64,000 bases of DNA from Escherichia virus TH44. The position numbers were made by a program, and so were the translations under genes. The DNA lies in sequence record MT446415.1; one strand, written 5' to 3'. The notes beneath the pieces were generated by a model, which was given only the letters and a program-made list of their open reading frames with translations, had not been told where the DNA came from and made no database searches. Positions 6,144-43,401 of this stretch are shown in pieces; position 1 is the first letter of the stretch, and each line of letters starts with the position of its first letter.

Positions 6144-6147
6144 AAAA

Positions 6148-6172
6148 GGGCCGCAAGGCCCTTATTCTTTTT
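6148..6172. terminator. Bidirectional rho-independent terminator between rnlB and gp24 paralog
   Basis: GGGCC-GCAA-GGCCC hairpin flanked by A-run upstream and T-run downstream, between convergent stops. Confidence 0.75.
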
Positions 6173-9119: not shown

Positions 9120-9129
9120 AAACAAGAAA

Positions 9130-9152
9130 GGGACCTCAAGGGTCCCTTTTTA
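9130..9152. terminator. Bidirectional terminator between ORF 8838 and gene 23
   Basis: GGGACC-TCAAG-GGTCCC hairpin with flanking A/T runs. Confidence 0.7.
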
Positions 9153-14499: not shown

Positions 14500-14523
14500 T
14501 AGAGTCTCCGAAGTTTGGGAAAT

Positions 14524-14537
14524 GAGGCCGAAGCCTC
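14524..14537 (-). other. UUCG-tetraloop hairpin in 5' leader of gene 20
   Basis: Reverse strand GAGGC-TTCG-GCCTC between late promoter and gene 20 RBS. Confidence 0.5.
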
Positions 14538-14547
14538 ATAATAACTT

Positions 14548-14555
14548 TATTTATA
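14548..14555 (-). promoter_or_regulatory. Late promoter TATAAATA for gene 20
   Basis: Reverse-strand TATAAATA immediately after gene 19 stop, 49 nt upstream of gp20 ATG. Confidence 0.6.
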
Positions 14556-14556
14556 C

Positions 14557-15048
14557 TTATTCCCACCAGTCAATTGCGAACGTTGTTTCGAACGTCTCAA
14601 TCTCATTATTACTGTCCCAATCCATCTGGACTTCCCCAACGTTGGTTGGCCACATGCCGGTAATAACAACTTCTTTCGTAACGGTCTTGCCATCACGATG
14701 GAACTGGCGGACAGTAGCGGTTTTCTTATAATCAGCAGGAGCTGCACCGGTGATTTCGTTAGTCATACCGTGACACAGATTTTGCCAATCAACAATTGCT
14801 TGACGAACTTTATGAGCATCGTCGTTATAAATCGTAATAGTCCAGTCATCAAATGTACGGTCGCCCGCAACGTTGATTTTACGGTTCATGTAACCGACAG
14901 GAACTTTTTCTACAATGCCTGCTGGCATCGGGGCTGCTTTACAATGGAAAGCAAAGTTTTTACCCAGGAATGGGATTTCGACTTCGAACAGGTTAGGGCG
15001 AGCAAAGTCGCCGGATTCGAAAGCGCGTGTGATATCGGTCAACTCCAT
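14557..15048 (-). CDS. 19: Tail tube protein gp19
   Basis: Start trimmed to MELTDITRAFESGDFARPNLF (ATG 15048, AAGAGGA RBS), matching recalled T4 gp19 N-terminus; the upstream in-frame ATG at 15099 sits directly beside the late promoter. Confidence 0.9.
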   Translation of the reverse strand: MELTDITRAFESGDFARPNLFEVEIPFLGKNFAFHCKAAPMPAGIVEKVPVGYMNRKINVAGDRTFDDWTITIYNDDAHKVRQAIVDWQNLCHGMTNEITGAAPADYKKTATVRQFHRDGKTVTKEVVITGMWPTNVGEVQMDWDSNNEIETFETTFAIDWWE

Positions 15049-15100
15049 TAAGGAATCCTCTTTATAGACACAGGTCGCGCGAACGCGTCCCTGATGCATG

Positions 15101-15108
15101 TATTTATA
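15101..15108 (-). promoter_or_regulatory. Late promoter TATAAATA for gene 19
   Basis: Reverse-strand TATAAATA 52 nt upstream of trimmed gp19 start. Confidence 0.55.
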
Positions 15109-15180
15109 CTAGGTAATATGATTCATCATCTCAAGATAATGTCTTCCCAGAATCAACCACAGGAGCCCGTAGAACCGATT

Positions 15181-15207
15181 ATGCTTTTATTTATAACACT
15201 GTATAAT
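15181..15207 (+). promoter_or_regulatory. MotA-box-like middle promoter oriented antisense to gene 18
   Basis: ATGCTTTTA + 12 nt + TATAAT followed by GGTTCTACGG; same architecture as 5011-5050. Confidence 0.4.
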
Positions 15208-15252
15208 GGTTCTACGGTTTCTAACTGATTAATTCATTCTAAGCGATGATAA

Positions 15253-17232
15253 TTATTGTGGCCCAATCAGCTCATCAAAATCAGCACCAGTGCTAGTGGC
15301 TACAAAATTAAGCTGTATATAGTTAATGCTGCGCGCAGGTTTATAATAAATGCTAGCAACGAACTCATTGCGGTCTATGACCGCTGGGGTGTTGTTAGTA
15401 GTATCACAAACCACACGACCTTCATAAATGCCACCGAGCGCACGAATACCATCCAAGTATTGAGAAGTTTCCATACGGAATGATGCACGAGTGAAGTTAT
15501 CGTTAAGCTCAAACAGTTTATATTTGGATGCGTCACCGATATTTTTCTTCAGCATATTCGTAAGACGACGAACGTTAATATGGTCCATCGGAGATGGAAC
15601 TTTAGTTGCAGTCTTATCACCATACAGAACAAAACCATCACCACCTGCGAAACCAACAACCGGGTTGATAGCTTCCTGATACATACGGTCACGTTGGGTC
15701 TGACGTGGTTCAACAGCCAATTTCAGAACGTTCAGAATCTGACCGCGGTTATAACCAGCAGGAGACATCCAAGGCTGAGAAACATCATCAGTACGAGCAC
15801 ACAGACCAGCCATATCAGCTGCCAGAGGAACCCAACGGTTAACGTCGTTATATTTATCATACTGATATTTATAGTTGCCATCAATCGCTGCATAAGTCGT
15901 GCTGATATTCATATTATCAGTATCAAATGCACCAGCACCTGTACGCCAGTCAATCAGGTTATCCACTGCACGGGTCAGAGGAACGTTAACCAACAGACCT
16001 TTCGGCGGGGAAATGAATGCCAAGCAATCCTGACGTTCGTCAGCAATAGAAACTACGTGCTTCTGAACAGTGGAAGCGGTCGCATCACCTTCACCAGCTA
16101 CTGCACCAGCGATAAGCAGGTTAATATGTAGAGCTTCACGGTCAGCGAACAGGTCCCAACCTTGCATCAAATCACCAGCGGTAATCTTATCGTTTGCAGA
16201 AATACCGCCAGACAGATTGATGATACCACTGAAGCCTACAGGCCAGTTGCGAGATGTTGCATAGATGTAGTTGGAAGTACCTTTTGCAAAGTAGTCATCC
16301 AGGTAAATGTTATTACCATAAACATCTTTTTCACCCTGCTTGGTAGACAAAACAACGTTTTCGACGATTGCACCATCACGGCGAACGATAATTGCATATT
16401 GGTTTTCGGACTGAGGACCGTAGTTAAACACTGCACGAGCCACAGAAGCACGCGTTCCGCCACCTGGGAAAATATTCAGATTTGTAGCCGCGCCTTTTTC
16501 GAATTCGGCTTTAGATACGATTTCAACTTCAAGTGTCGAACCAATTTCACCAGGATAAAGAGCAACAACACCCGGCATTGCATATTTTGCCAATGATGCC
16601 TGGAATTCCAGAGAAGTAATTGCTTCTTCACTATTTTCTGCTTCAGTCAACAGAATGCCGGAATCGGTAACAATTTTCCCAACAGTGATGGTACCAGATA
16701 CACCGGAAGAAGTGGTCGTAACTTCTGCAGTCCATGCGCTACCCAAATTAGGATATTGGTTAATAGTTTTGGCAAATGCAACAATCTTATCGGTAGGAAT
16801 AAAGATTGCAAGAATTTTACCATCAACATCGACCTTGGTCACGCGGCCAGCTGATTCAACAACAGTCTGATTGTGCTTAACCTGAATAACATCACCAACA
16901 GCATAGTTTGTACCAGCAGTTACAATGGTAGTTTCAATATTGCCAGCAATCGGGGATGCGTTTTTAGCTTCGTCGCGGTTAACAACACGTACAGTACGGA
17001 GGTCATTACCATATTGCAGGAAGTTCATCCCACTCATAAAGTAATCTGCTGTTTCATTATTCGGACCACCAAATAAATCAACAAGTTCAACTTCGTTTGT
17101 AATCTGAGTTACCTGGAAAGCTGGGCCCCACTGGAATTTACCAACCAGCGCCGCACGACCCGTCGCATTACGAACAACAGTGCTTTGGACCGTTGTTTCT
17201 TTGAGCTCAATGCCCGGAGATAATAAAGCCAT
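15253..17232 (-). CDS. 18: Tail sheath protein gp18
   Basis: 659 aa, same length as T4 gp18; between gp17 and gp19. Confidence 0.93.
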   Translation of the reverse strand: MALLSPGIELKETTVQSTVVRNATGRAALVGKFQWGPAFQVTQITNEVELVDLFGGPNNETADYFMSGMNFLQYGNDLRTVRVVNRDEAKNASPIAGNIETTIVTAGTNYAVGDVIQVKHNQTVVESAGRVTKVDVDGKILAIFIPTDKIVAFAKTINQYPNLGSAWTAEVTTTSSGVSGTITVGKIVTDSGILLTEAENSEEAITSLEFQASLAKYAMPGVVALYPGEIGSTLEVEIVSKAEFEKGAATNLNIFPGGGTRASVARAVFNYGPQSENQYAIIVRRDGAIVENVVLSTKQGEKDVYGNNIYLDDYFAKGTSNYIYATSRNWPVGFSGIINLSGGISANDKITAGDLMQGWDLFADREALHINLLIAGAVAGEGDATASTVQKHVVSIADERQDCLAFISPPKGLLVNVPLTRAVDNLIDWRTGAGAFDTDNMNISTTYAAIDGNYKYQYDKYNDVNRWVPLAADMAGLCARTDDVSQPWMSPAGYNRGQILNVLKLAVEPRQTQRDRMYQEAINPVVGFAGGDGFVLYGDKTATKVPSPMDHINVRRLTNMLKKNIGDASKYKLFELNDNFTRASFRMETSQYLDGIRALGGIYEGRVVCDTTNNTPAVIDRNEFVASIYYKPARSINYIQLNFVATSTGADFDELIGPQ

Positions 17233-17261
17233 TTTGAGTCCTCTAATAGTTTGCTTTACTT

Positions 17262-19568
<2,307 letters not shown>

Positions 19569-19572
<4 letters not shown>

Positions 19573-20444
19573 AGTGGTACCCTATTTTTTCTTGGGGCTG
19601 GCGGTGCTGGGTCAACCGGTACAGGAATATCCTGCGAATATGTTTGAACAGATTCACCTTGCCAGTCTTCTTGGTCGACGTCTCGTGGAACAGCTTCCGA
19701 GTCAACAGATTCGAAATTGCCCTCTGGTGCAAGCTCTCTGGAATTTGCAAAGAAGTCAAGATAGATAGTGCGGATTTCCCCTGCTACTTCCTTGACCGGT
19801 GGATATAACCAACCGTTGACTTCGAACATAATGGACCATTCGAGTCTACGGCGAGTCATTGCATCACCTTCAATTTGCTCATCCATAGCAATGGACTGGA
19901 GCACGATTCTTATATCACGTTCGAACGTAATTTCATTCGTATAAAGTTCAGTGATAGTTGTATTAAAATGTGGTTGGAAGTAAGGCATGATTTGTTCGAT
20001 AATCTGGAACATATCATCTTGATGCCTTGTATATATTCCAAGCTCGAAAATCATTTTGACCGGCACCGGAGAATATTGAGATATCTGCTTGCGAGGGTCG
20101 TTATTAGCAAATCGCGCCTGTGTGTGATTCTGGAGAGCCGTTTTATATTGCCCGTTATACATCAAGTCAACCATATGTAGGTTCATACGGGGCAATACGG
20201 TCTCGATTTTAGCCTTCTGAGCAGCACGTTCTTGTGGTGTCATGTCAGGAGTAGGTGTATTCTGAATAGCGGTCCATTTTCCAAGCTGCATCATGAATTT
20301 TTCTTTTGAAGCATAAGAAATAGGGACCTTAATATATTTAAGTCCAGTGTCTTCTCTGGTTCTGGCCACTTGTACATGGGAAAATAAATCGCCCATTAAA
20401 ACGATATAGCGACGCAGAGACGAATTATAAAAATGCCCAAACAA
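19569..20444 (-). CDS. 15: Tail sheath stabiliser/completion protein gp15
   Basis: 291 aa; [21 protein letters not shown] resembles recalled T4 gp15 N-terminus; initiator codon appears to be TTG with GGAGG RBS 5 nt upstream. Confidence 0.88.
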
Positions 20445-20456
20445 AGTAACCTCCAG

Positions 20457-20473
20457 GCGCCCAATTCGGGCGC
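20457..20473 (-). other. Hairpin GCGCCC-loop-GGGCGC in gene 14-15 intergenic leader
   Basis: 6-bp GC stem immediately upstream of gene 15 RBS. Confidence 0.4.
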
Positions 20474-20487
20474 ATTAATAAATGTAT

Positions 20488-21273
20488 TTATTCATCAAAG
20501 AAACTATCGTCAAAGCTATCCTGTTTTGCCTTCGGAGGAGCCTCAAGTCCACGACCATTCTGCACAAAATATGGTTTAACATATTCAGCTGCTTCTGCGT
20601 TAATCTCATCAGATTCTGCATAAGGGATATCGCTGATATCTGTAAGGCCATCAATATTGTGGATTGGTTGTAAATCGAGCTCGCTGAATTCTGAAATATT
20701 AATACCTTCATTCCGTTGCAATTCAGGTTTAAGTTCTTCCCCGGAGTAAATGTATTTGCTCGCGGTGATTTTACGAATGGCGTTTTGACCTACCTGATAG
20801 AATGGGTCGTAAGGTTGTACCCATGTAATTTCGAACAGGCTGTTATCAAGAGGGAAATAAATCAAATCCCCTGCAATAGGTTCAGTGCCATTACATTGAT
20901 GTTTAAACAGATTAGGGTTAATCGATATTGTGATTTCGTCATTCACAGTCATACCGAATTTACTAAAGATAGAACCATCACCCTGATAGGCGTCAAACGT
21001 ATCCAGATAACCTGCAAATTTCCATGCTTTATCGAATTTACTCTGGAGGTCTTCACCGAATAGCAAATCCGGTTTAACGAATTGTCTTGGGATATAATAG
21101 AGAGACATTCCACGCATCTGAATACTTTCGGCAACAATAGCATCAGCTAAAGTCTGGGTATTTTCATGATGCATAAAGTTTACATAAGGGTTCAATATCT
21201 CTGTAGCATTGGTATTGTCATACCCGGTCCCGTCTTCGAGCCGGGCGAATAATCTTGAGTCATAAGTAGCCAT
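20488..21273 (-). CDS. 14: Neck protein gp14
   Basis: 261 aa; between gp13 and gp15. Confidence 0.85.
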
Positions 21274-22211
21274 TAGCCCACCAATATAGGAGTCGGTGCA
21301 TCCAGCAAGTCAAGTTCCTCACGGAGACGTTCTTTTTCCATACGAGCTTCTTCGATTAAACGGACGCCATCAACCGTGGTACCACCTGGCATCATCATCC
21401 CCTGATGTTTAGCCAATACGTTGCCGTTAACTTCCTTAACGAGTGCCGTGGCATAGTCTTTCACCCAACGATTGTTGTATGCACCATCTTGAAGTCCAAG
21501 GTCCTCACCAGCTCTCATGCCGCTTATTCTGCGTGCCGGGTTATCCCACTGTGCGCCAGCATTCCACGGATTATCACAATCAGCCGAAGCAAAACCATAA
21601 CCAGCTGTATTGCCTACCATTGAATCCACACCGTTATATGATTTGGTATAAACTTCAATTACAATCACATCTCCCTGACGGAAGTTGCCCATAATTTTAA
21701 GTTGTTCAGTATCGTCATTATACCAGTAATCTGGCAGCGGAACCATCAGGTCTTGCATCATTGAACGGTATTGCATAAGCTGTGTAAAATAACCAAGGTC
21801 TGCACCAAAAGCATTTGGGCCAAAGCTGTTACATGAGCTACCCATTCCACCGTTAATCCCAGCAAGGCCCAGAACGAAATCTGTGAACCACGGATATGTA
21901 GCTTGTCCGTCCATTGAAGTTAATGAACCGACGTTAGTACGAATAATCTGCGTTACTGCAAAAATATTACGGCCTTTTAAATCGAAAACACCATCGCGGA
22001 ATTTCTGTTGTGAAACTTCATCATGGCCAATATAAAAAGCCTGATAACCTTTGTTATAACCATTATAGTGATATTCGCCATATAATTCTAATGCACGCTG
22101 GATGCAATCATAAACCTGTTCGGTCGTAACTTCGATATTCGTGATTGGCGCACCAAGACGACGAAGGATTGCATCTTTTAATTGTTTCGGGTTGTATGAT
22201 TCAGTTGCCAT
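21273..22211 (-). CDS. 13: Neck protein gp13
   Basis: 312 aa; between wac and gp14. Confidence 0.85.
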
Positions 22212-22229
22212 ATGTTTTCCTCTTTACTG

Positions 22230-22237
22230 TATTTATA
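22230..22237 (-). promoter_or_regulatory. Late promoter TATAAATA for gene 13
   Basis: Reverse-strand TATAAATA between wac terminator and gene 13 RBS. Confidence 0.5.
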
Positions 22238-22245
22238 CGAAAAAA

Positions 22246-22257
22246 GGGCCGAAGCCC
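22246..22257 (-). terminator. Terminator hairpin after wac (GGGC-UUCG-GCCC + U-run)
   Basis: Reverse strand GGGC-TTCG-GCCC followed by TTTTTTCG. Confidence 0.6.
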
Positions 22258-22262
22258 TTTTA

Positions 22263-24509
22263 TTATGGTGCTGGATTTAATGTCACAAATGTTGACAAAA
22301 GAACCCATGCATTATCAACGAGAACATACGGGAGACCATCATCCGCAGGAGCGACAGGAGGCCTTTTGGCGAGCTCTGTTTCTAAGGCTGATACTTTACC
22401 TTCTAAAGTAGTTATCTTCGCCTCGGCTGCATCCAGGCGACCAGGAAGAGGAGTTACTTTGCCTTCGAGAGTTGTCACACGAGTGGTTAATGGTGCAATT
22501 TTTGCAGTATCAAGTTTAATCGTAGCGATTTCATCTTCACTCGAGGTAACACGTACAGTTAATGGTGCAATCTTAGCAGTATCGAGTTTAATCGTATCGA
22601 TTTCATCTTCAACTGTTGCGACTCTTTCGTCTAGCGGTGCAATTTTTGCAGTATCCAATTTAATTGCGGTAATTTCATTTTCACTTGATGTGACACGCGT
22701 AGTTAATGGAGCAATTTTTGCAGTATCGAGTTTAATCGCAGTGATTTCTCCTTCCGCCGAAGTCATTCGCCCGGTCAAGGTTACCAAACCACCTTTGTTT
22801 GTTTCGATATTTGCTTTGATAGTAACCAGTTCACCTTCAACATTGCTAACGTCTAAAGCTAAAGCAGTGACATCATCATCAGTAGACGCGGTTTTGGTTT
22901 CCAGTGCGGTTATTTTACCGTCAACAGTCGTATCCTTCGTTTCTAATGCAGTGAGTCGACCATCTTGTTCCGTATCTTTATTTTGCAGAGCAAGAACATC
23001 TGCCTTAACACCAGTGACGGAAGTATTCAGCGCACCATAACGAGTATCTAATGAACTAATTGCCGTATCATTATCGTCAACACGACCAGTTAATGTTGTT
23101 ACGCGCCCATCAGTTGTTGCCAATGAAGCTTTAACCGCATCAACTTCGGTTTTGGAATCGATAATTTCTGTCCAGGCTCCTTGCTTGCGACCATATAACT
23201 TATTGTCCAATGGTGCGTCGTTCAGCTTGGTCGCCATCAGCATATCCAAGTTAATTACAACCGGAAGAACACCACGTTCAGCCACAGTAGCACCGTTAGG
23301 GTTAGTTCCGTTCATCTGACTAGTTAAAGTCAAAATAGAGCCTTTCATACCGGTGTTATTTGTACCGATTTCGGCCTGTACATCCTGAAGACCTGATGCG
23401 GTTTCGTTAGCCAGCGTAGTAGTTGCATTCAACTTGTACGTGATAGTGTTTGGCTCTGGAGATTGCTCTGTACCGATTCTCTGAGAAAGCCATGCAGTGG
23501 TTCCGCGTAAACCGGAGCTTGAATCCTGACCAACAACAACCTGTAATCCATTAACATCCGTGCGTAAAGCACTGATTCGACCATTAATTGTTAATGGTTC
23601 CAGAGCGGTGCCGATATCAGCTTCAACCTTAGTGAGTCTTGGTTTGATATTCGCAATATCTGTTTCATTGACTAGAACACGTCCACCAAGATTTTCAACG
23701 CGGGTTGTAATTGCAATCCCTGTACCAAAACCAATAGCTTCTTGAATGCTGGCAATATCTTCGTCAATTTCGACTGCTTTATCATCAAGAGTATTCAGTC
23801 GAACAAATACAGCCGGTTTACCTGTTGCTAAAGTAGACTCACCTAATTCTTCACGAATTTTAATTACTTTTACGTTAAGAGAACCAACATCAGAATCGTG
23901 ATAGTTATCTTCAAGAGTCTTAATACGAACTCCATGCGCAACAATAGCCGAACTGTTATCGATGATGCGGCGTTTCATGCCTTTTGATGGATTGCCAATA
24001 ACCTGAAGACCATTTATATCTTGGTCAACATACTGACCTAATTCATTTTTAATCCATAAAAGGTCATTACGAACTGTGCGATAATATGAATCGGTTAACG
24101 GGTCATAAGCACCAACATCTTCCTTTAACTTTTTAAGACCTTCGGATGTTTCGCTTGATAACAATTCAGTATTAAATTGGCGTTCATCAAGGTCAAGAAT
24201 ATCCGTACGGTTTTTTTCAATTTGTTTAACAACTTCCGTGTTAGTTGTTATATCCAAAGCTTCCTGAATATTATTGACGTTATCAATAATTTCGTTGATT
24301 TTTTCTTTAGATGTATTTGAGTTGTCGTCGAGTGTATCTACGTTTGTTTGAACGCTTACCGCAGCAGCGTTCAAATTACCATCATGGCCATATTTGGTGC
24401 TGGCCGCAGTCATACAATCGCCATTTTGTATCCAACGAATTCTCTGTTGACCTTCGTCTGGAATACCGATGCTATACGGCAGTTCTTTGAGACTGAGTTT
24501 ATTAATCAT
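22263..24509 (-). CDS. wac: Fibritin (whisker/neck fibre), elongated coiled coil with C-terminal foldon
   Basis: Start trimmed to MINKLSLKELPYSIGIPDEGQQRIRWIQNG (AAGGA RBS); C-terminal YVLVDNAWVLLSTFV foldon-like; 748 aa. Confidence 0.88.
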   Translation of the reverse strand: MINKLSLKELPYSIGIPDEGQQRIRWIQNGDCMTAASTKYGHDGNLNAAAVSVQTNVDTLDDNSNTSKEKINEIIDNVNNIQEALDITTNTEVVKQIEKNRTDILDLDERQFNTELLSSETSEGLKKLKEDVGAYDPLTDSYYRTVRNDLLWIKNELGQYVDQDINGLQVIGNPSKGMKRRIIDNSSAIVAHGVRIKTLEDNYHDSDVGSLNVKVIKIREELGESTLATGKPAVFVRLNTLDDKAVEIDEDIASIQEAIGFGTGIAITTRVENLGGRVLVNETDIANIKPRLTKVEADIGTALEPLTINGRISALRTDVNGLQVVVGQDSSSGLRGTTAWLSQRIGTEQSPEPNTITYKLNATTTLANETASGLQDVQAEIGTNNTGMKGSILTLTSQMNGTNPNGATVAERGVLPVVINLDMLMATKLNDAPLDNKLYGRKQGAWTEIIDSKTEVDAVKASLATTDGRVTTLTGRVDDNDTAISSLDTRYGALNTSVTGVKADVLALQNKDTEQDGRLTALETKDTTVDGKITALETKTASTDDDVTALALDVSNVEGELVTIKANIETNKGGLVTLTGRMTSAEGEITAIKLDTAKIAPLTTRVTSSENEITAIKLDTAKIAPLDERVATVEDEIDTIKLDTAKIAPLTVRVTSSEDEIATIKLDTAKIAPLTTRVTTLEGKVTPLPGRLDAAEAKITTLEGKVSALETELAKRPPVAPADDGLPYVLVDNAWVLLSTFVTLNPAP
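22486..22760 (-). repeat. Tandem ~60-70 bp coding repeats in wac coiled-coil region
   Basis: Four copies of ttaatggtgcaat.tt.gcagtatc.agtttaatcg; protein repeat KLDTAKIAPLTTRVTSSE.EI.AI. Confidence 0.75.
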
Positions 24510-24517
24510 TTTGGTCC

Positions 24518-26068: not shown

Positions 26069-26733
26069 TACGATACTCGCTTATAATGGTAAAGTGAAAT
26101 TGCGCCATTTGCTGTGCCACCTGATAATGTCTGGGTTGAAGTTCCAAGATATTCCCATGAACCATAACCACCGCGCGGTTGCTGTATAATAGTCTGGCTA
26201 AGCGTACAACCATATTGAGCGAAAGGTGCAAAATTATGGTTTTGGTAGTCGTTATATGTAATATTTAATATAGACTGGTCCACACTATCAATTGCGGAGC
26301 TTGACACAATTAAACTATCAGCAACAGCCGTCAGCAAAGCATCGTTAACCTTGGAAGCAACTAATACAGCCGAATCCCCGACAATAACCTCGACCGGAAT
26401 ACCAAAAATGAAAAATAAAACAGTATCACCAACCCCAGCACCAGAAATAGACCCGGTGAATTTAATTTTATCCGACTGACTAATTGCCGCAGGAGAAAGG
26501 TTATTCGTATTAGTAATTACACTGCCAACCGGAAGCTCATATCGAAACGCAATATCATCTATTGCGCTCTGAACTGTTGGATAAAAAATACCCTCGGTTG
26601 TTTGTGTTGCGGATGGGCCGCCGATTGCTCGTTGACCCATGACAGCCGTAATATTTTTTGATGTATTTTGAAATTCTAAGTAACTAGCAAGGCGGGAAAT
26701 TACTCCAGCCTTTTTATTCGTTAATGTTTTCAT
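26068..26733 (-). CDS. 11: Baseplate wedge protein gp11
   Basis: 221 aa; between gp10 and gp12. Confidence 0.85.
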   Translation of the reverse strand: MKTLTNKKAGVISRLASYLEFQNTSKNITAVMGQRAIGGPSATQTTEGIFYPTVQSAIDDIAFRYELPVGSVITNTNNLSPAAISQSDKIKFTGSISGAGVGDTVLFFIFGIPVEVIVGDSAVLVASKVNDALLTAVADSLIVSSSAIDSVDQSILNITYNDYQNHNFAPFAQYGCTLSQTIIQQPRGGYGSWEYLGTSTQTLSGGTANGAISLYHYKRVS

Positions 26734-28544
26734 TAAGCAATCCTTACCCAGCGATGAGCAATCAAATATGGAGGCATTGTATAAACCGGTTGAGCTTGAG
26801 GGTCTTGCGCCTGATTAATAGTGGCTTTGTCTTCTCTGTATTTGGTATAGGCTGGACCTTGTGCATCTGGGTCTACCTGACAACCGCCAACAACAATCGG
26901 ACCATTATCATCAACAACCAAAACTTTCTCATCGGTTTCAAGTTTAGGTACGTTTATATCTTTAATATGAACTTCAACACTACCACCTGTGCCACCCGCT
27001 GTCGCTTGTGGGTTACCACCAGAATCCAGGTCATTATTGTTTGTATGGAAGTTTGAGGCAGGGTCGTCCGACCAGGCAACGATTACACGCTCTTTCAAAC
27101 GTTTCCATGAACCGAATCCCATATAAGTAACCGGGTTATTCGGGTTAACCGTATTTTCGTAAATTGTACCGACCGGATAGAATAATTCGAAGATAGCGCC
27201 AACAGAAGATGGAACAACTTCCTGAAGACCGACTGGTTCAACGTTTGGTGCAAACGGATTATCAAAATCTGTAATACGTACACGACCAGTTAGGCTCAAT
27301 GTGTTTCCCTGAGAAACATAAAGAGTGTCAGTCTCATCACGGATTTCATCCATGGTCATAGTTGTGCCGATATCGTTATTGTACCAAATGACCGACAGAA
27401 TATCACCGTCTTCAAATTCACGATAAATGCTAATACCTTCGATGCGGTTGTCATCATCAAATTGCAGCAAATAATCCTGGGTTGATTCAGACCAACTGCC
27501 ACCATTTGCGCTACATTCTGCCGCAGTGGAACCTTGTGCACCTTCGCAATAAAATACTGGAGTTCCTGCGGTCCCGGCTTGATGTTGTAAAATACTGTTA
27601 ATGAATACCTGACATGCATTTGGGTTAATTGGACTACCCGGAGAAATACCAAGTTCTTCAATTGTAAAGGTGTGTTTGGTTGTCAAATCTGTAACAATCA
27701 AAGAACCATTAATTGTTGTTTCTTTAGTCCTGTCTTGACTACGAACAAGTATATCACGACGATTATACGAACTACGCCATTGAGCAATACCATCATTAAA
27801 TGTTCGGATGATAACCGTATCACCTTCAGCGCATGGCATTTTCAAACGGATACTTTTGCCATCAAGCGCAACAATTTCGCCAGGGTTTGCGCCAGGGGAA
27901 CCAAATTCAGCATTCACCGGGTCGAAAATATCATCTTTACCATAAAACAGGTCGTTACCACGATGTTTGACTTCTAAGTTCGATACGCTATACGGAATAG
28001 CACCAAACACATTGATAAAGTCAGTTTGTCCTTCGGTAGCAATAAACTGTTGGGATGCAACCGTAGCAACGTCGTTATTTGAAATTTTATCGACTTGTTT
28101 ATTATCGATATATTCCCAACGACCTGGTGAACAATATACAAGTTCAAGGTCAGCTAAGTTGCGTTTAATTTCTACTGGATTTGGTGAGCCTTTAATCGTA
28201 TCCCCGACTGCAGGAACAATTGTCACCGGGTTGATTTGCCAGGTAGCAAACACATCGCGCAATCGAATTACATAATTGTATTCTTGAGTTGTTCCTTTCG
28301 GGAGGATAACTCGGACTGCACCGGCCGATGTATCGATGGTATAGCTTCGACCCATAACAGCAGGCAACTCGGTGCCTTCTTGTGTAGTCCAAGTTTTCCA
28401 TGCACCAGCCGCATGAGGATTTTCACCGTCACCCAGCTGATAATAAAGGTCGTCAAAGTTATTGTTTATTTTTTGACCGCCGAGACGAAGGTAATCACCA
28501 GTACCATCATCAACCATATTGCCAATTTTTAAATTCTGTTTCAT
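26733..28544 (-). CDS. 10: Baseplate wedge protein gp10
   Basis: 603 aa; T4 gene order. Confidence 0.88.
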   Translation of the reverse strand: MKQNLKIGNMVDDGTGDYLRLGGQKINNNFDDLYYQLGDGENPHAAGAWKTWTTQEGTELPAVMGRSYTIDTSAGAVRVILPKGTTQEYNYVIRLRDVFATWQINPVTIVPAVGDTIKGSPNPVEIKRNLADLELVYCSPGRWEYIDNKQVDKISNNDVATVASQQFIATEGQTDFINVFGAIPYSVSNLEVKHRGNDLFYGKDDIFDPVNAEFGSPGANPGEIVALDGKSIRLKMPCAEGDTVIIRTFNDGIAQWRSSYNRRDILVRSQDRTKETTINGSLIVTDLTTKHTFTIEELGISPGSPINPNACQVFINSILQHQAGTAGTPVFYCEGAQGSTAAECSANGGSWSESTQDYLLQFDDDNRIEGISIYREFEDGDILSVIWYNNDIGTTMTMDEIRDETDTLYVSQGNTLSLTGRVRITDFDNPFAPNVEPVGLQEVVPSSVGAIFELFYPVGTIYENTVNPNNPVTYMGFGSWKRLKERVIVAWSDDPASNFHTNNNDLDSGGNPQATAGGTGGSVEVHIKDINVPKLETDEKVLVVDDNGPIVVGGCQVDPDAQGPAYTKYREDKATINQAQDPQAQPVYTMPPYLIAHRWVRIA

Positions 28545-29413
28545 TATACCGGTACTCCGATTGTTTGGGCGGAAATTACTTTAACAGCGAGCTTCATGGC
28601 AGTGGGTGAGCTTATAGCCGCCTGAATGATATCCTGGTTATCAATTCTAAAATCGATGGCATATATCTCATCTTCTTCATTAGTTTGTCCACGTCTGATT
28701 ACAGCGTATTCTGTGCTATATACCTTGCGGTCCTTAAGGTCGATGTAAAGTAATATTTCTGATGCTTTGTATTTAGTTTCGTCTGTTGAAATAGCTGTCA
28801 GCATCAATTTGATAGTTTTATAATCTGCGCGGAAAGCAAGTGGAATATCACGAACAACCGAGCTCATATTGTATGTTTTGTCGAGCAATACAGATTGGTT
28901 GCCAAACATACTTTCAATTTTGTAGTCCCAGGTCCCTACACCGTTAGCATCGTCAATACACCACAATGTAATTTTTGTATAAGGCTGAGTAAATTTCATT
29001 TTGTTCGTTGCAGCAGTCAGGAATGAATCCGTGCCTTGTAGTTCAACTTCCAAAGGCAACGAGGTGGATAATGAACCATTGGAGTTAATAAAGATAACAC
29101 CTTCGCCTGCTTTACCTTTTGCAATTCTTGCAGTGATAACACCTTCGGCAGTATTGACATCTCGCATAGAACCGAGAGCAACAGTCGAGTTCCATTCGAT
29201 GATATTTGTGGCTTTTTGATAGTAGCCAGTCGCATGAAGTACCTGGGAGTTTTCTCCATTGTTCACAGAGTACAGACGCTGGTCGCCGAATGTATTATAC
29301 AAACTGTCTAAATCCACGTTCAGTTTACGACCGCCTTCATATAGAATATCACCGGTGCTGGCGTTACCAATCTCGCCGATGTCTACTAATAATTTTGGGG
29401 TTTGATTAATCAT
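28544..29413 (-). CDS. 9: Baseplate wedge protein gp9 (long tail fibre socket)
   Basis: 289 aa; T4 gene order. Confidence 0.85.
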   Translation of the reverse strand: MINQTPKLLVDIGEIGNASTGDILYEGGRKLNVDLDSLYNTFGDQRLYSVNNGENSQVLHATGYYQKATNIIEWNSTVALGSMRDVNTAEGVITARIAKGKAGEGVIFINSNGSLSTSLPLEVELQGTDSFLTAATNKMKFTQPYTKITLWCIDDANGVGTWDYKIESMFGNQSVLLDKTYNMSSVVRDIPLAFRADYKTIKLMLTAISTDETKYKASEILLYIDLKDRKVYSTEYAVIRRGQTNEEDEIYAIDFRIDNQDIIQAAISSPTAMKLAVKVISAQTIGVPV

Positions 29414-29440
29414 AGGTAAGCCTCGTTATTGATATAGCTA

Positions 29441-29448
29441 TATTTATA
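29441..29448 (-). promoter_or_regulatory. Late promoter TATAAATA for gene 9
   Basis: Reverse-strand TATAAATA 28 nt upstream of gp9 ATG. Confidence 0.55.
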
Positions 29449-29458
29449 GAATAAAAAA

Positions 29459-29474
29459 GGGACCCGAAGGTCCC
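29459..29474 (-). terminator. Terminator/attenuator hairpin between gene 8 and gene 9
   Basis: Reverse strand GGGACC-TTCG-GGTCCC followed by TTTTTTATTC. Confidence 0.6.
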
Positions 29475-29477
29475 TTG

Positions 29478-30482
29478 TTAGAATTCAAAAATAATGTTAA
29501 CTTCTTCTGTCTGGTCCATTGCACGAATAATCGGTGGACGGTTTTCCATATAAATCATTTCCCCGGAATGACGGTCCAAATCAATTGCATCGTAGTATTC
29601 TTTGATTGCTTTGATATTTGGGTCATTAGGATGTACTTTAACTTCAAGTGGGTTGGATATAATCGACAGCTGGCGGAAGCCTTTGTTCCCCGGGAGACTG
29701 AACTCTGGGAAATAAATGGAATCCATAAATGCTTTAAATCTGATTGTATATCCTTTGATTCTGTATATTAAACCGAAATCATCTTGTTGCCAGCTGATAT
29801 TGTCTTTGTAGCCCCAACGTGATGGGTCTTCTTCGATTTCTTCAGGCCATGGAACAACAATATATTCGTTAGTACAACGGTTGATGGATACATCAGGTGG
29901 AATCTCATACAAATATTCCCAGAGATAACCATCGCCCATATCGACTCGTCCTTCTGTATCACCAGTCCCAGCTGGAGCTCTCGTTGAGTTATATTCTGCA
30001 GTCCATTTACCACCGAGTTTTAAACACTCTTCTTTATTGATAATAGAATAAATGGAGCAAGTCCCAACATCAGGAACATCTACACAACGATAAACCATCC
30101 AACCTTTACCAACATCAGTTCGGTTATACGGAGCACTGTTAGCTACAACAATTTCCCCTACCTGGAAGTTAAGCGGATTAGGATATCTGATATCGCCCCA
30201 GTCTTTACGTGGGACAACACAATCAAGCATTGACTTATAAACTTTGACTGCACCCATCATATTTGTCCAAGTATCTTCAACACCTTGTGCTGTGTCAACC
30301 GGATACGGAGGGGCGAACCCCGGGTCATTCTCATTCGAAGCCCAGGGTTCAGCACGACCGAACGTTACATACATCGTATTCTGGTCGGGCTCATTACCAA
30401 TCATTTTATAAAAGTTATACATTTTTTCAGTTCGAAATTTCGAGGTAATTATCGAACGATAAACTACAGATGAATTATTCAT
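29478..30482 (-). CDS. 8: Baseplate wedge protein gp8
   Basis: 334 aa, same length as T4 gp8. Confidence 0.88.
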   Translation of the reverse strand: MNNSSVVYRSIITSKFRTEKMYNFYKMIGNEPDQNTMYVTFGRAEPWASNENDPGFAPPYPVDTAQGVEDTWTNMMGAVKVYKSMLDCVVPRKDWGDIRYPNPLNFQVGEIVVANSAPYNRTDVGKGWMVYRCVDVPDVGTCSIYSIINKEECLKLGGKWTAEYNSTRAPAGTGDTEGRVDMGDGYLWEYLYEIPPDVSINRCTNEYIVVPWPEEIEEDPSRWGYKDNISWQQDDFGLIYRIKGYTIRFKAFMDSIYFPEFSLPGNKGFRQLSIISNPLEVKVHPNDPNIKAIKEYYDAIDLDRHSGEMIYMENRPPIIRAMDQTEEVNIIFEF

Positions 30483-33400
30483 TTACCTTTACCTGTGTTG
30501 GGTCTTTCGGGTCGCGTGGATTACCAATATCATCCTTAAGACGTTGATTAACCAAATTGCGCCAGTTAGCAAAAGTCACGGCAGACTGGTCAAACAATGG
30601 ACTGTATTTTTTACGACGTTCAGACGGGAGAGTCCCATGAAAATCTGAAAAATCGTTTTCGGCATCATAATCTGCCGGTAATGGGAACGGTAAACCTGCG
30701 TTAGGAGCAATATTATATACTGCTTCACCTGTAACAGGGTTATGCTCAATGTTTCCATCAGCTCCAATAACTGCAATACGGTCACACCATTCTGACGGGA
30801 TACCCGACGACCAACGATAGTTGTTCAGTTTATTGATAATGGTTTCTGTGTGTTTTAATGACAGACCAGCATTAACAAACATTGTCAATAATGTAATTCC
30901 AACAAATCCAAATCCAACCGGATGAACAAATCGCAATACGTCATTACGATAACGAGATGTAGGGAGACTTGATTTAATGGTCATTACATAGTAAGAACGA
31001 TTTCGGTTGATATAATCTATGTTGTTGCTAAGTAATTCTTTCCCGCGAACACCCTGAACAATCATGCCTTCAAAGGAAGTCCTTTCGGATTTAATTTCTT
31101 GCCCAACAATAAAGCGACCAAGCAAGTTATGAATCGTGATACGCCATCTCAATTTACCCTGTTTGTAGTCACGCTCCATATAGGTAACGTTACTGCGGCC
31201 GGTTGGTGTGTAAATTGTTTGCCCAACAATATCTTCGCTGATATTATCAGATTCGACAATTATGTCATACTCGGTTCCGTTCTTGGATTCAATATCGATT
31301 TCAACGTCTTCATTATATAACAATTTGAATAAAAACTTATAGGATGCTTCAGTCCCCTTGGTTGCCCAAAAATCAGACTGTCTTGCTTCAAAGAAACGAA
31401 CTACTTCGTCACGCTTGGTCTTTGACAAATATATATTTCTTTTGTACATTTCACTCCAAAGGTATTCCCATGCATCTTCCTCGCGTGGGTATTGGTTGCG
31501 AATCAAGTTCAAAAGGTTGTTATAATATGTGCCAGAACCATCACTGATAAACTGCAAATAATATTCACAGAATTTTTCGAAGTTGCTATCCTGGAGCAAA
31601 TAACTATCCGGAATCATCTTTGTTAAAAGAGGACGCAAGTCCGGGTCTTTCTCTTGTTCATCATTCTCCGGGGTCCATGGAATATCATGTTCCTGGTTCT
31701 GCAATTCTGCAGTGAACATAACTTCTTTCGGTTTCCAGATTAATCTAACTTCATCACGCATACGATAGTCGAATTCAAAATAACCAATAAGCTCACCAGT
31801 ATTTTTATGTAACATAATACCTGAGGCATATTTTTTAAAGCCATTGAATTCGATGTTAGGAGAAGTAACTTTCACTTGACCTTTATTCCAGTATTCGTGC
31901 ACAATACGTTCAGGGGATGAACCACCAAAGGTATCGATAATCTTTTGATACAGCATGTCATTATATACAACCAGAGCTTTGTCTGATGTAGTAATCCAGC
32001 AACGAGTATCATCACGGCGAGACCAGTTAAAGAACGGTTCAGCGTAATATGACATACGTCCAGGTTTAAACTCTTCCCAACCTGAATCTTTATTTGACCT
32101 AAAACTCATCATCAAATAATGCTTGTCATGTATCCATTGTTCATCATACACATATTTGACTGCTTCGTTAACTTCTTCAGGATACTTAGCAGGGAGTTCG
32201 GTATCTGGCTCAACGGAATAACGGAAGTTACTTGAACTGATAAAAAGTTCAATTCCATCAGTTGACATGCTTGTGTAACCATGTTCAATACGGCGACGTT
32301 CATCCTCTGTATTACCAAAAACTCGTGTCCATGTATCGGTATCGGTATTTAATTTATAAACACCCTTTGATAATGAATCGACAACGTTTTCAGGCTTAGT
32401 CGGGTCTTGGCGTTCTTCCTTTACTTCACCCGTGATTAATGCAAACACTTCACCGTCAATTGAATCCATCTTGTAACAAACAGCTTTTGGGTTGCCGCTT
32501 ATTGTGCTATATCCAGCTTCAAATAATTTTTCACCGAATGTTGGGGAGTTAGGGTCGTTATCAATTGGAGCATCAGAAGATTTAGCTTTATATACACGGT
32601 CGCGGCCAGCAACGTAAATCATGGAATCGGTCGTGGTAATTGCTTCGGCAATTGTTGAGATATATGCCGGAAGTCTTGCGTATGTGCCAAATATTTCAAT
32701 ATCAAATCCGAGATTGATATCCGAACCAATTTTTGCAAATGTTATATCCTGAGAACTGAATCGAACATCATCAGCAGACCATCTTATGTCACTTGATTTA
32801 CGACCGTAAAAAATTCGGTCATATCCGAGTACATAAGTTGTCGTATCTGATTGATAATAAATTGTGCGCGATACTGGGTTACCGATACGGTCATTAAACA
32901 ATTTTACATAATACCAGTTCTGCCCTTTATCATTGGAGACTTTGACAGTTGTCTGGAATCGTTCAAACAAATACAGTACACCACCAAGTTCAGCAATCAT
33001 CGTACGATTAACATCGTTACACACTGGCTGAATACTGCCCTGAATTTCGTGATATTGGTCTTCTTTTAATACATAGTTTGAAATTGAAGACAAATGAGAA
33101 TAAGCAGGAGTAAAGCTAAAATCTTCAGACATCAACGATGCCATAATTGCATCATTATTAAAGTTGATATAAGCCTGATTATTGTTTGTGAATTTTTCTT
33201 CGATGAATTTATTTGTTAATGTAAACTCACGCATGTGTTCAAATGTGTATGCGTTAGTTGCAAAGGTTTCAAATTCTTCGGTATAAACCCAATCAGATTG
33301 TTCAAAACCCATTGCTGCAACAGCAACACGCATTTTGTAAAATGACACTGGACGAATAAAATCTTGTTCGAACCATTCATTGTCTGGAGTATAACCTAAA

Positions 33401-33573
33401 TTCCTCCATAACAGATTTTCTTCTGGAATAGCAACACCATTTTCTTTTGTCGTAGCAATCTCAACAAAATAATAAAAGTTGGCGCCAACATTATCCCATT
33501 TTATGCTAACCTGGTTAGCAGATAGTTTATCAATCCGTAAGCTGGTTACATAAGGGGCTTTAACACTCATCAT
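30475..33573 (-). CDS. 7: Baseplate wedge initiator gp7
   Basis: Start trimmed to MMSVKAPYVTSLRIDKLSANQ, resembling recalled T4 gp7 N-terminus; about 1032 aa. Confidence 0.9.
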   Translation of the reverse strand: MMSVKAPYVTSLRIDKLSANQVSIKWDNVGANFYYFVEIATTKENGVAIPEENLLWRNLGYTPDNEWFEQDFIRPVSFYKMRVAVAAMGFEQSDWVYTEEFETFATNAYTFEHMREFTLTNKFIEEKFTNNNQAYINFNNDAIMASLMSEDFSFTPAYSHLSSISNYVLKEDQYHEIQGSIQPVCNDVNRTMIAELGGVLYLFERFQTTVKVSNDKGQNWYYVKLFNDRIGNPVSRTIYYQSDTTTYVLGYDRIFYGRKSSDIRWSADDVRFSSQDITFAKIGSDINLGFDIEIFGTYARLPAYISTIAEAITTTDSMIYVAGRDRVYKAKSSDAPIDNDPNSPTFGEKLFEAGYSTISGNPKAVCYKMDSIDGEVFALITGEVKEERQDPTKPENVVDSLSKGVYKLNTDTDTWTRVFGNTEDERRRIEHGYTSMSTDGIELFISSSNFRYSVEPDTELPAKYPEEVNEAVKYVYDEQWIHDKHYLMMSFRSNKDSGWEEFKPGRMSYYAEPFFNWSRRDDTRCWITTSDKALVVYNDMLYQKIIDTFGGSSPERIVHEYWNKGQVKVTSPNIEFNGFKKYASGIMLHKNTGELIGYFEFDYRMRDEVRLIWKPKEVMFTAELQNQEHDIPWTPENDEQEKDPDLRPLLTKMIPDSYLLQDSNFEKFCEYYLQFISDGSGTYYNNLLNLIRNQYPREEDAWEYLWSEMYKRNIYLSKTKRDEVVRFFEARQSDFWATKGTEASYKFLFKLLYNEDVEIDIESKNGTEYDIIVESDNISEDIVGQTIYTPTGRSNVTYMERDYKQGKLRWRITIHNLLGRFIVGQEIKSERTSFEGMIVQGVRGKELLSNNIDYINRNRSYYVMTIKSSLPTSRYRNDVLRFVHPVGFGFVGITLLTMFVNAGLSLKHTETIINKLNNYRWSSGIPSEWCDRIAVIGADGNIEHNPVTGEAVYNIAPNAGLPFPLPADYDAENDFSDFHGTLPSERRKKYSPLFDQSAVTFANWRNLVNQRLKDDIGNPRDPKDPTQVKVNE

Positions 33574-33587
33574 GGTTTCCTTAAAAA

Positions 33588-33601
33588 GCCTCCGAAGAGG
33601 C
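33588..33601 (-). other. Intercistronic UUCG hairpin between gene 6 and gene 7
   Basis: Reverse strand GCCTC-TTCG-GAGGC + TTTTT, then AAGGA RBS of gene 7. Confidence 0.5.
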
Positions 33602-43074: not shown

Positions 43075-43083
43075 ATAACACAA

Positions 43084-43105
43084 GGGGATAATTATCCCCT
43101 TTTTA
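43084..43105 (+). terminator. Palindrome GGGGATAATTATCCCC + T-run
   Basis: 16-bp perfect palindrome followed by TTTTTA; cassette boundary. Confidence 0.5.
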
Positions 43106-43363: not shown

Positions 43364-43401
43364 GTATACGCGATGGGATAACTGCATTATAATTATCCCA
43401 T
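43364..43401 (+). promoter_or_regulatory. Early promoter stem-loop cassette (PeSL-like)
   Basis: -35 GTATAC; inverted repeat ATGGGATAA/TTATCCCAT flanking TATAAT. Confidence 0.5.

Follow-up and report, generated by a model that had tools for sequence, protein, structure and literature searches.

UUCG- and GNRA-capped intercistronic RNA hairpins at the late-gene junctions of Escherichia virus TH44

The junctions between late genes of Escherichia virus TH44 carry short RNA hairpins of a class that is already known, namely, the "CUUCGG hairpin" terminators and mRNA stabilizers long described in T4-type phages. We observed defined stem-loop structures, nonrandom placement, sense-strand polarity, positional conservation, and covariation. 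From the comparative sequence data, these are very probably T4-type intercistronic RNA hairpins, some serving as terminators and others as stability or boundary elements. The window, i.e., the whole stretch of 64,000 nucleotides analyzed here (MT446415.1), belongs to a Gaprivervirus-like T-even phage with 94-97% identity to VR26/TH15, in which the late structural genes 53-5-6-7-8-9-10-11-12-wac-13...23-24 are located on the minus strand. The initial annotation of this DNA had interpreted the hairpins as RNA stability or processing elements in addition to terminators, a view that is partly supported by our results and is not new.

Structure, placement, and polarity of the hairpins

GC stem-loops are present at all seven coordinates singled out in the initial annotation, which had assigned them UUCG, GCAA, or GAAA loops (Table 1). 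Four of the sites do have UUCG loops, on the minus (coding) strand, where the displayed plus strand reads CCGAAG, and two (2398 and 6146) have GCAA loops on the plus strand. The loop of the hairpin after gene 23, listed at 9130, is 5 nt long (CUUGA on the minus strand, UCAAG on the plus strand) and belongs to neither tetraloop class, and GAAA caps none of the seven (0/7); a GAAA hairpin is located at 4461, a site that had been overlooked.

Table 1. Hairpins and late-promoter motifs in the TH44 window (SD, Shine-Dalgarno sequence; unlisted, absent from the initial annotation)
Feature	Coordinates	Strand	Structure and context
Gene 6/7 junction hairpin	33586-33603	-	AAGCCUC-UUCG-GAGGCUU then UUUAAGGAAACCAUG (gene 7 SD and start)
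Gene 8/9 junction hairpin	29457-29476	-	AAGGGACC-UUCG-GGUCCCUU then UUUUAUUC
Late-promoter motif, gene 9	29441-29448	-	TATAAATA; 8 nt downstream of hairpin, 28 nt before start codon
wac/13 junction hairpin	22242-22261	-	AAAAGGGC-UUCG-GCCCUUUU then UUCG
Late-promoter motif, gene 13	22230-22237	-	TATAAATA; 4 nt downstream of wac/13 hairpin
Gene 14/15 junction hairpin	20457-20473	-	GCGCCC-GAAUU-GGGCGC; SD 2 nt downstream; unlisted
Late-promoter motif, gene 20	14548-14555	-	TATAAATA; between gp19 stop codon and hairpin
Gene 19/20 junction hairpin	14522-14539	-	AUGAGGC-UUCG-GCCUCAU then UUCCCAAAC
Hairpin after gene 23	9127-9149	-	AAAGGGACC-CUUGA-GGUCCCUUU then CUUGUUUU; terminator-like
Hairpin between convergent rnlB (+) and second gene 24 copy (-)	6146-6163	both	GCAA on + (transcribed strand for rnlB), UUGC on -
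Hairpin after collagen-repeat gene	4461-4492	+	14-bp stem, GAAA tetraloop on transcribed strand, flanking A and U tracts; unlisted
hoc-like/collagen-repeat gene junction hairpin	2398-2411	+	GGGCC-GCAA-GGCCC, GCAA on transcribed strand; SD (GGAGG) 7 nt downstream
GNRA-loop hairpin	46572	+	GAAA on transcribed strand
Early-region hairpin	63284-63311	+	12 bp, UUCG cap, then U6; unlisted

Folding energies (dG) are nearest-neighbor values that already include the tetraloop bonus. The 6/7 hairpin, which shares 2 nt with the gp6 stop codon, has a dG of -10.5 (z of -2.7 against shuffles), and the 8/9 hairpin, which begins 2 nt past the gp8 stop codon and has canonical intrinsic-terminator anatomy, reaches -14.9 with its flanks included, a value matched by 0/200 shuffles. 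The wac/13 hairpin also begins 2 nt past the stop codon and, preceded by an A tract and followed by a U tract, displays the same canonical anatomy. The 19/20 hairpin (z of -3.4) is separated by 8 nt from a late promoter on its upstream side and by 12 nt from the gene 20 SD on its downstream side. Taken alone, the 5-bp stem at 2398 does not differ significantly from shuffles (z of -1.7). On the plus strand, the 4461 hairpin has a dG of -23 and a z of -7.7, and the 63284 hairpin folds on this strand only, owing to two G·U pairs in its stem. The hairpin at 6146 is followed by U tracts on both strands, resembling a bidirectional terminator.

The chance expectation was derived from 200 dinucleotide shuffles of the window, counting perfect hairpins whose loop is 4 nt long and whose stem includes no fewer than 4 GC pairs. 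For stems of at least 5, the window contains 15 hairpins versus 5.0±2.2 in shuffled sequences, and for stems of at least 7, there are 8 versus 1.1±1.1 (maximum 5). Seven of these 8 fall in noncoding DNA, which makes up 7.6% of the window, and among these 7, 6 have a UUCG or GNRA loop in the sense orientation, against an expectation of ~3.4% per loop. All five UUCG loops of the window (33586, 29457, 22242, 14522, and 63284) lie on the sense strand, i.e., that of the flanking genes, and all five have the form C-UUCG-G; the hairpins lie in noncoding DNA or share 2 nt with a stop codon. The built-in terminator scan of the window gave no overall enrichment (22 versus 18±3.8; 12 versus 15.9±4.4), its loose criteria swamping the signal, and the stricter hairpin counts were therefore used. 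The number of CTTCGG hexamers alone (43 versus 19) is not diagnostic, most copies being coding and found on both strands, and at gathering score the Rfam 15 covariance models matched two tRNAs and no hairpin family.

Probable terminators and boundary elements, and late-promoter motifs

The termination function proposed in the initial annotation fits most of the sites. With a U tract defined as at least 5 U within 8 nt past the last G-C pair, such tracts follow the hairpins at 33586 (5), 29457 (7), 22242 (6), 9127 (6), 6146 (on both strands), 4461, and 63284. The hairpins at 14522 (3), 20457 (2), and 2398 (3) have none and were therefore not filed as terminators, so that "terminator" cannot cover every hairpin. 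Across T4-like phages, conserved hairpins at the 14/15 and 19/20 junctions are followed by a U tract in 0/34 and 11/52 cases, respectively, and the retention of U-tract-less hairpins at these positions points to a function distinct from termination. Stability or boundary elements are thus the more likely identity of the hairpins at 19/20, 14/15, and between hoc and the next gene, as judged from their sequence. The proposal of a role beyond termination accordingly draws support from anatomy and comparison, and also from the T4 literature, in which CUUCGG hairpins are credited with stabilizing mRNA and arresting reverse transcriptase (Tuerk 1988, cited in PMC8948821); the TH44 hairpins may likewise stabilize mRNA. 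Loop class and U tract show a weak trend (GNRA, 6/28; UUCG, 22/48).

The coupling of hairpins to late promoters is less regular than had been suggested. The order hairpin, then promoter motif holds for two of the seven listed sites, at 8/9 and wac/13, and the gap at 8/9 is 5-9 nt in most relatives. At 14522, the motif is instead upstream of the hairpin, and at 33586 and 2398 the next SD follows directly, with no promoter in between. T4 late-promoter geometry predicts that the late transcript of gene 20 starts ~3 nt before the 19/20 stem. In the lineage of the window, which comprises Gaprivervirus, Dhakavirus, and Kanagawavirus-like phages, the stem follows the late promoter at a constant spacing of 8 nt, and the gp19 stop codon lies on the other side of the promoter; in T4, the order is the reverse, hairpin and then promoter. 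It is possible, and we suggest only tentatively, that the 19/20 hairpin has a dual use in these phages, as a 3' cap for the gene 18-19 mRNA and as a 5'-terminal protective stem (at about +4) for that of gene 20. If true, the swapped order of promoter and hairpin would represent a family-wide tuning of portal-gene mRNA stability.

We infer termination efficiency and effects on mRNA half-life from these sequence features and propose the following mechanism. The hairpins, placed 0-21 nt past certain late-gene stop codons (those of 6, 8, wac, 14, 19, 23, 24, and hoc), would act in mRNA rather than in DNA, their short G+C stems gaining a stability unusual for their size from the C(UUCG)G or GNRA tetraloop. 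T4 late transcription is carried out by the host core RNA polymerase, so the intrinsic-terminator mechanism should be applicable, and the sites with U tracts (6/7, 8/9, wac/13, after 23, 24/rnlB, and 4461) would be intrinsic terminators for this enzyme. Termination is probably partial, given that several stems have just 4-5 G-C pairs. The terminated 3' end would be capped by a structure resisting 3'-to-5' exonucleases, and the late promoters of genes 9 and 13, a short distance downstream, would restart transcription, thereby splitting the late cluster into units of different output. Where the U tract is missing (19/20, 14/15, and hoc/next gene), the hairpin would most likely contribute to stability or mark a boundary inside polycistronic RNA, and at 19/20 the late transcript of gene 20 may additionally begin with it as a 5'-terminal stem.

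Conservation in relatives and alternative explanations

The comparison covered 11 reference genomes and 77 IMG/VR loci, a hairpin being counted at dG <= -8. Among the IMG/VR loci, hairpins occupy the 8/9 junction in 51/62, the wac/13 junction in 67/75 (63 of them with a UUCG or GNRA loop), and the 19/20 junction in 52/58, a presence of 82-90% versus 14% in control windows (106/750 random). At four junctions of these loci, UUCG was found on the sense strand 101 times and CGAA once, and UUCG is closed by C-G in 47/48 distinct hairpins among relatives. In the covariation alignment, 97% of cells are paired, double changes occur at all 7 pairs, and compensatory cells number 62 versus 14±3.5 in shuffles; the alignment was drawn from hairpin-forming sequences, and these values are therefore descriptive, the unbiased test being the presence rate relative to control windows. 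At one and the same orthologous junction the loop can be UUCG, GCAA, GAAA, or GUAA, a switching confined to UUCG and GNRA, stems vary freely, and G·U pairs render some hairpins strand-specific. Terminators have been annotated by other groups at the same junctions in phages G2248 and Miller. The 6/7 hairpin was found, among the genomes compared, in the window, VR26, and IME281 only; since genes 6 and 7 overlap in T4, it is a peculiarity of the Gaprivervirus/Dhakavirus lineage. Collectively, the sequence comparison indicates that hairpin position and loop class (UUCG or GNRA) are kept across Straboviridae, with turnover of the stems and the exact loop.

Could the hairpins work mainly for the downstream gene, as 5' or SD-proximal structures that hinder RNase E entry or insulate the ribosome-binding site? 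We consider this unlikely, even though the gene 20 promoter lies upstream of the 19/20 hairpin with an 8-nt gap that is constant over four or five stem sequences, so that the stem would begin ~3 nt into the transcript. In addition, the distance from the hairpin end to the next SD is 2-7 nt at 33586, 20457, and 2398, and the gene 32 mRNA of T4 is a precedent for stabilization by a 5' hairpin. However, it is the hairpin that stays beside the gp19 stop codon across the family, while the promoter changes sides; in T4-type phages, the promoter is downstream of the hairpin, and the late transcript would thus lack it. The hairpin invariably precedes the promoter at 8/9 and wac/13, and with the 1-nt gap of RB43-like phages, the late transcript would lose part of the 5' arm.

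A function in the DNA itself, whether as cruciforms, as cassettes for recombination or shuffling, or as mobile palindromes like PeSLs or REP elements, is highly improbable. The stems are perfect palindromes in DNA, and T4-like phages carry recombinogenic promoter/stem-loop cassettes (PMC2839356, PMC4122927), including five in the early region of the window, but the asymmetry of the loops tracks the direction of transcription and some stems contain G·U pairs. Moreover, the late-junction hairpins have just CUUCGG in common, with unrelated stems, unlike a mobile repeat family, and occupy fixed junctions of the conserved core rather than indel boundaries. We give equally little credence to sequence-specific sites of binding or cleavage, be it translational-repressor operators or RNase III processing sites. 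RNase III substrates are far longer than these stems of 5-8 bp, and nothing in the analysis pointed to the proposed processing, taken as endonucleolytic cleavage at the hairpins. Loops interchange and stems vary at orthologous junctions, what is conserved being stability and not sequence, and no Rfam family was matched, despite the extensive use that T4 makes of RNA operators (gp32, gp43, and RegA) and of the nuclease RegB (PMC3014915). As for chance palindromes in AT-rich intergenic DNA, the 2398 hairpin is not significant singly and the CTTCGG hexamer is common in coding sequence; nevertheless, the counts above shuffles, the noncoding location and loop classes of the longer stems, and the retention of hairpins with compensatory changes at orthologous junctions leave this origin a negligible probability. 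It was rejected, being refuted by the shuffle, placement, and conservation tests.

Under the preferred reading of T4-type intercistronic hairpins, TH44 provides a re-finding, in a VR26-like coliphage, of UUCG/GNRA elements known from T4, and the discovery value is small. The comparative tables make a modest addition, namely, the conservation of position and loop class alongside turnover of stem and exact loop. For annotation, the hairpins would mark the ends of the late transcription units [53-6], [7-8], [9-wac], [13-14], [15-19], [20-23], and [24], and they may be of use as compact natural terminator/stabilizer parts.

Comparison with known systems

The CUUCGG hairpin class of T4 was reportedly described by Tuerk et al. 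in 1988 (PNAS 85:1364), which led to UUCG becoming a recognized extra-stable tetraloop. According to PMC8948821 (citing Tuerk 1988 and Gorski 1985), the intergenic regions of T4 are rich in such hairpins, which stop reverse transcriptase and stabilize the gene 32 mRNA. Hairpin-forming CTTCGG is restricted to the sense strand in T4 (PMC7165471), and a T4 mobE hairpin with a short U tract terminates 30-50% of transcripts by 3' RACE (PMC2790892). In a synthetic terminator library, the choice between GAAA and UUUC loops had no consistent effect on termination; the literature searched yielded no usable tetraloop enrichment statistics for bacterial terminators, TERMITe making no mention of tetraloops, and the search for a genome-wide T4 map of 3' ends or transcription start sites (Term-seq, ONT-cappable-seq) returned other phages only.

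PeSLs (Arbiol 2010; Comeau 2014) are likewise intergenic, composite terminator/promoter modules of T4-like genomes. They form, however, a repeated sequence family of hyperplastic early regions, the loop of which contains a sigma-70 -10 box, whereas the TH44 late-junction hairpins are not repeats, have unrelated stems, 4-5 nt loops, and any late promoter outside the stem, and are not PeSLs. Five PeSL-like elements are present in the early region of the window (43375-57085). With Rho-independent terminators of E. coli, the hairpins share the G+C stem-loop and U tract; an A tract on the upstream side often makes them bidirectional (6146 and 4461). They differ in the sites devoid of a U tract (14522, 20457, and 2398). 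The 19/20 stem, predicted to begin ~3 nt into the gene 20 late transcript, resembles the 5' stabilizing stem-loops of the T4 gene 32 leader and E. coli ompA, but here the start site is a deduced one, and the hairpin is equally well placed as a 3' element of gene 19, the T4 promoter being downstream. The closest likeness is to the C(UUCG)G hairpins of T4, with which the TH44 hairpins share the virus family, the hexamer, the C-G closing pair, intercistronic placement on the sense strand, and the same or neighboring junctions, T4 carrying UUCG loops behind genes 23 and 18. T4 differs in its loops at 8/9 (CAUG), wac/13 (GCAA), and 19/20 (GAAA); after gene 23, GGGAACC-UUCG-GGUUCCC followed by U6 occupies the very place of the CUUGA hairpin of TH44.

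Tetraloop hairpins between the late genes

A megablast search with 14000-24000 recovers T-even phages, with Gaprivervirus VR26, TH15 and TH41 as the best matches (covering 94-98% of the query at 94-97% identity), and the portal protein shares 99.8% identity with its VR20 counterpart. In a gene map drawn from the ORF list and from the annotations of VR26 and T4, the minus strand carries late structural genes from ~38.7 kb down to 6.2 kb (53, 5, 5.1, 5.4, 6, 7, 8, 9, 10, 11, 12, wac, 13, 14, 15, 16, 17, 18, 19, 20, 67, 68, 21, 22, 23, then two gene 24 copies), and hence the late cistrons between 14524 and 33601 are read from that strand. Gene 24 is also tandemly duplicated in VR26 and IME281, whereas T4 has one copy. 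The plus strand at 0.3-6.1 kb carries inh, an Ig-domain Hoc-like gene, a collagen-repeat gene, 24.2 and rnlB; VR26, by comparison, has the collagen-repeat gene on the opposite strand, together with a Hoc-like gene. Several GC hairpin matches inside coding sequence (2743-3023) are due to the collagen Gly-X-Y repeats. Two tRNAs were the sole gathering-score Rfam matches in the window, with no family for the tetraloop hairpins.

Genes, hairpins and repeats in the window; U counts refer to the 8 nt past the last G-C pair, the basis for class A (intrinsic-terminator anatomy) and class B (without U tract)
Feature	Coordinates	Strand	Class (U count)	Remarks
Hoc-like protein with Ig domains, 470 aa	966-2378	+
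GCAA hairpin	2398-2411	+ (sense)	B (3)
Collagen-triple-helix-repeat protein, 676 aa	2428-4458	+		after Hoc-like gene
GAAA hairpin, 14-bp stem	4461-4492		A	late region; dG -23, z -7.7
rnlB/24 hairpin, genes convergent	6146-6163	both	A (6-7, both strands)	GCAA on +, UUGC on -
Gene 24 (capsid vertex) paralogues	6162-7445, 7446-8726	-		after gene 23
Hairpin after gene 23	9127-9149		A (6)
19/20 hairpin, C(UUCG)G	14522-14539	-	B (3)	perfect-hairpin scan
14/15 hairpin, GCGCCC-GAAUU-GGGCGC	20457-20473	-	B (2)	2 nt before gene 15 SD
wac/13 hairpin, C(UUCG)G	22242-22261	-	A (6)	perfect-hairpin scan
8/9 hairpin, C(UUCG)G	29457-29476	-	A (7)	perfect-hairpin scan
6/7 hairpin, C(UUCG)G	33586-33603	-	A (5)	perfect-hairpin scan
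Repeated stem-loop, five copies	43375-43399, 43708-43732, 44021-44041, 47772-47792, 57065-57085	+
Further site listed beside these copies	43082-43101
tRNA-Met (CAU)	45510-45585	+		Rfam gathering score
tRNA-Arg (UCU)	45586-45662	+		Rfam gathering score; adjoins tRNA-Met
UUCG hairpin, 12-bp stem, two G·U pairs, then U6	63284-63311	+	A	early region

The initial annotation described short G+C stem-loops at these junctions, and one is present at every coordinate that it listed, starting 0-21 nt past the upstream stop codon; small corrections aside, the observation is confirmed. All four listed hairpins within its span carry C(UUCG)G on the minus (mRNA) strand. The good hairpin at 9127 has a 5-nt CUUGA loop and had been mis-described as a tetraloop, while the only GAAA hairpin of the late region, at 4461, had gone unlisted, as had those at 20457 and 63284. 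The last of these, terminator-like and in the early region, indicates that tetraloop terminators are not limited to late genes.

Scanning for perfect hairpins with a 4-nt loop, at least 5 stem pairs and at least 4 GC pairs yields 15 in the window, while 200 shuffles that preserve its dinucleotides give 5.0±2.2; eight had stems of at least 7, against 1.1±1.1 (maximum 5). Seven of these eight fall in non-coding DNA, 7.6% of the window, and six of the seven have UUCG or GNRA as the sense-strand loop, for which composition predicts ~3.4% per loop. Excess, placement and loop class together exclude chance as an explanation. Tested singly, most hairpins outscore nearly every one of 200 shuffles, or all of them; the small one at 2398 is not exceptional (z -1.7). 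The bare count of the hexamer CTTCGG (43 copies, 20 on the plus and 23 on the minus strand, versus 19.2±4.4 in dinucleotide shuffles) is uninformative; only 5 copies lie within hairpins, and the others fall inside genes on either strand, where the surplus presumably stems from codon or amino-acid usage.

A distinct intergenic stem-loop, (GAT)GGGATA-N9-13-TATCCC(ATC), is repeated five times (0.04 matches expected), with TATAAT or TATGAT in the loop and CAACTACTG-GAG, then a start codon, after each copy. These repeats look like the PeSL (promoter-early stem-loop) cassettes known in T4-type phages (PMC2839356, PMC4122927).

Conservation across T4-like phages

We compared ~41 kb around gene 20 from 11 genomes, T4, VR26, IME281 (Dhakavirus), Q7622 (Kanagawavirus), Roth51 (Klebsiella), JK42 (Mosigvirus), Konradin (Acinetobacter), G2248 (Krischvirus), Miller (Pseudotevenvirus), phiAS4 (Aeromonas) and PVA8 (Vibrio), together with 77 IMG/VR loci around gene 13. 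Junctions were placed by tblastn with the window's proteins, and a hairpin was scored as present if a simple hairpin with dG <= -8 kcal/mol lay at most 150 nt upstream of the start codon.

Hairpins at late-gene junctions of T4-like phages, by loop type
Junction (start codon)	Loci with hairpin	UUCG	GNRA	Other UNCG	Other	U tract
8/9 (gene 9)	51/62	20	13	0	18	35/51
wac/13 (gene 13)	67/75	49	14	0	4	32/67
14/15 (gene 15)	34/70	9	5	2	18	0/34
19/20 (gene 20)	52/58	23	19	2	8	11/52
Random control windows, same loci	106/750	10	4	1	91

Hairpin presence, the unbiased statistic, is 82-90% at 8/9, wac/13 and 19/20 versus 14% in controls, and the G2248 and Miller records independently annotate a 'terminator' at these junctions. 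At the same three places T4 has CAUG, GCAA and GAAA loops, respectively, whereas the window has UUCG throughout; T4 has UUCG loops after genes 18 and 23. Relatives carry UUCG, UUUG, GAAA or UGG hairpins at 14/15. The 6/7 hairpin is specific to the lineage of the window, VR26 and IME281; in T4, by contrast, genes 6 and 7 overlap. In VR26, the closest annotated relative (genomes ~95% identical), the 8/9 hairpin differs by a single transition, UUUG for UUCG in the loop.

Stems are highly varied (GGGC, GGACC, GGGACC, GGGAGC, GGGAGAC, GGGGC, GGGCC, GGCUCC and others), and C-G closes the UUCG loop in 47 of 48 distinct hairpins. A loop-anchored alignment of 32 distinct wac/13 and 19/20 hairpins has 97% of cells paired, double changes in all 7 pairs and 62 compensatory cells versus 14±3.5 in shuffles, figures that we take as descriptive because the sequences were pre-selected as hairpins; in slid registers pairing collapses. 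Across the IMG/VR loci, UUCG lies on the sense strand in 101 cases versus one CGAA. That case (L055, IMGVR_UViG_638275429, ~9853-9873) reads AAGGCUCC-CGAA-GGAGCCUU, versus AAGGCUCC-UUCG-GGAGCCUU in its sister L058; it lies 127-147 nt upstream of gene 13, and an opposite-strand gene may intervene.

Proposed roles in termination and stability, and rival readings

Since T4 late transcription relies on the host's core polymerase together with gp55 and gp33 (PMC3014915), class A elements should terminate part of the late transcripts, and the 3' ends formed there would be capped by a very stable stem. The gene 9 and 13 late promoters, just downstream of their hairpins, would then re-initiate transcription. 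A late promoter had been described as often following the hairpin immediately; this holds at 22242 and 29457, where TATAAATA lies 4 and 8 nt downstream. At 14522 the motif precedes the hairpin (14555-14548, gap 8 nt), and it is absent at 33586, 2398, 6146 and 9127. Class B elements are conserved yet, judging from their anatomy, cannot be efficient terminators, and are best read as putative stability or boundary structures within polycistronic RNA. The suggestion of roles in RNA stability or processing besides termination is partly supported: the termination anatomy is borne out, the subset without U tracts points to a further role, and processing is unsupported.

Explanations at the DNA level or by mobile elements fail: polarity strictly follows the sense strand, some stems contain G·U pairs and no stem sequence is shared. 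Sites for a sequence-specific protein or RNase fare no better, given that UUCG and GNRA loops interchange at one junction and stems span just 5-8 bp. For class B, the main role may instead be on the 5' side, as protection or insulation of the ribosome-binding site that lies downstream.

The gene 19/20 junction and the hairpins of T4

Throughout the family the 19/20 hairpin adjoins the gp19 stop codon, with the late promoter on either side of the stem. In 23 loci the promoter lies between stop codon and stem, giving stop19-TATAAATA-8 nt-hairpin-SD in the window (14499-14560, minus strand), Dhakavirus and others; in 19 loci (T4, Mosigvirus and others) it lies downstream, as stop19-hairpin-spacer-TATAAATA-SD. 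In 11 loci, the window's group, promoter and stem are separated by exactly 8 nt across four or five different stem sequences; RB43-like phages have a 1-nt gap. A second CUUCGG (14508-14513) overlaps the gene 20 SD (CUUCGGAG). From T4 late-promoter geometry, the window's gene 20 late transcript would start ~3 nt before the stem and so gain a 5'-terminal hairpin, a kind known for mRNA stabilisation. Dual use of this hairpin, 3' and 5', accompanying the swap in promoter/hairpin order, is a tentative and rather doubtful proposal, of modest interest if true; swap and dual use are the only, mildly new, angle here.

According to the summary of a 1988 paper in PMC8948821, CUUCGG hairpins of T4 arrest reverse transcriptase, and a CUUCGG hairpin at the 5' side stabilises gene 32 mRNA. 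In a T4 recount, over half of the CTTCGG copies on the sense strand had self-complementary flanks, and no antisense copy did (PMC7165471). By 3' RACE and RNase protection, 30-50% of transcripts were shown to terminate at one T4 hairpin whose U tract is short (PMC2790892). The hairpins, correctly recognised in this VR26-like phage, are of a kind already known from T4.
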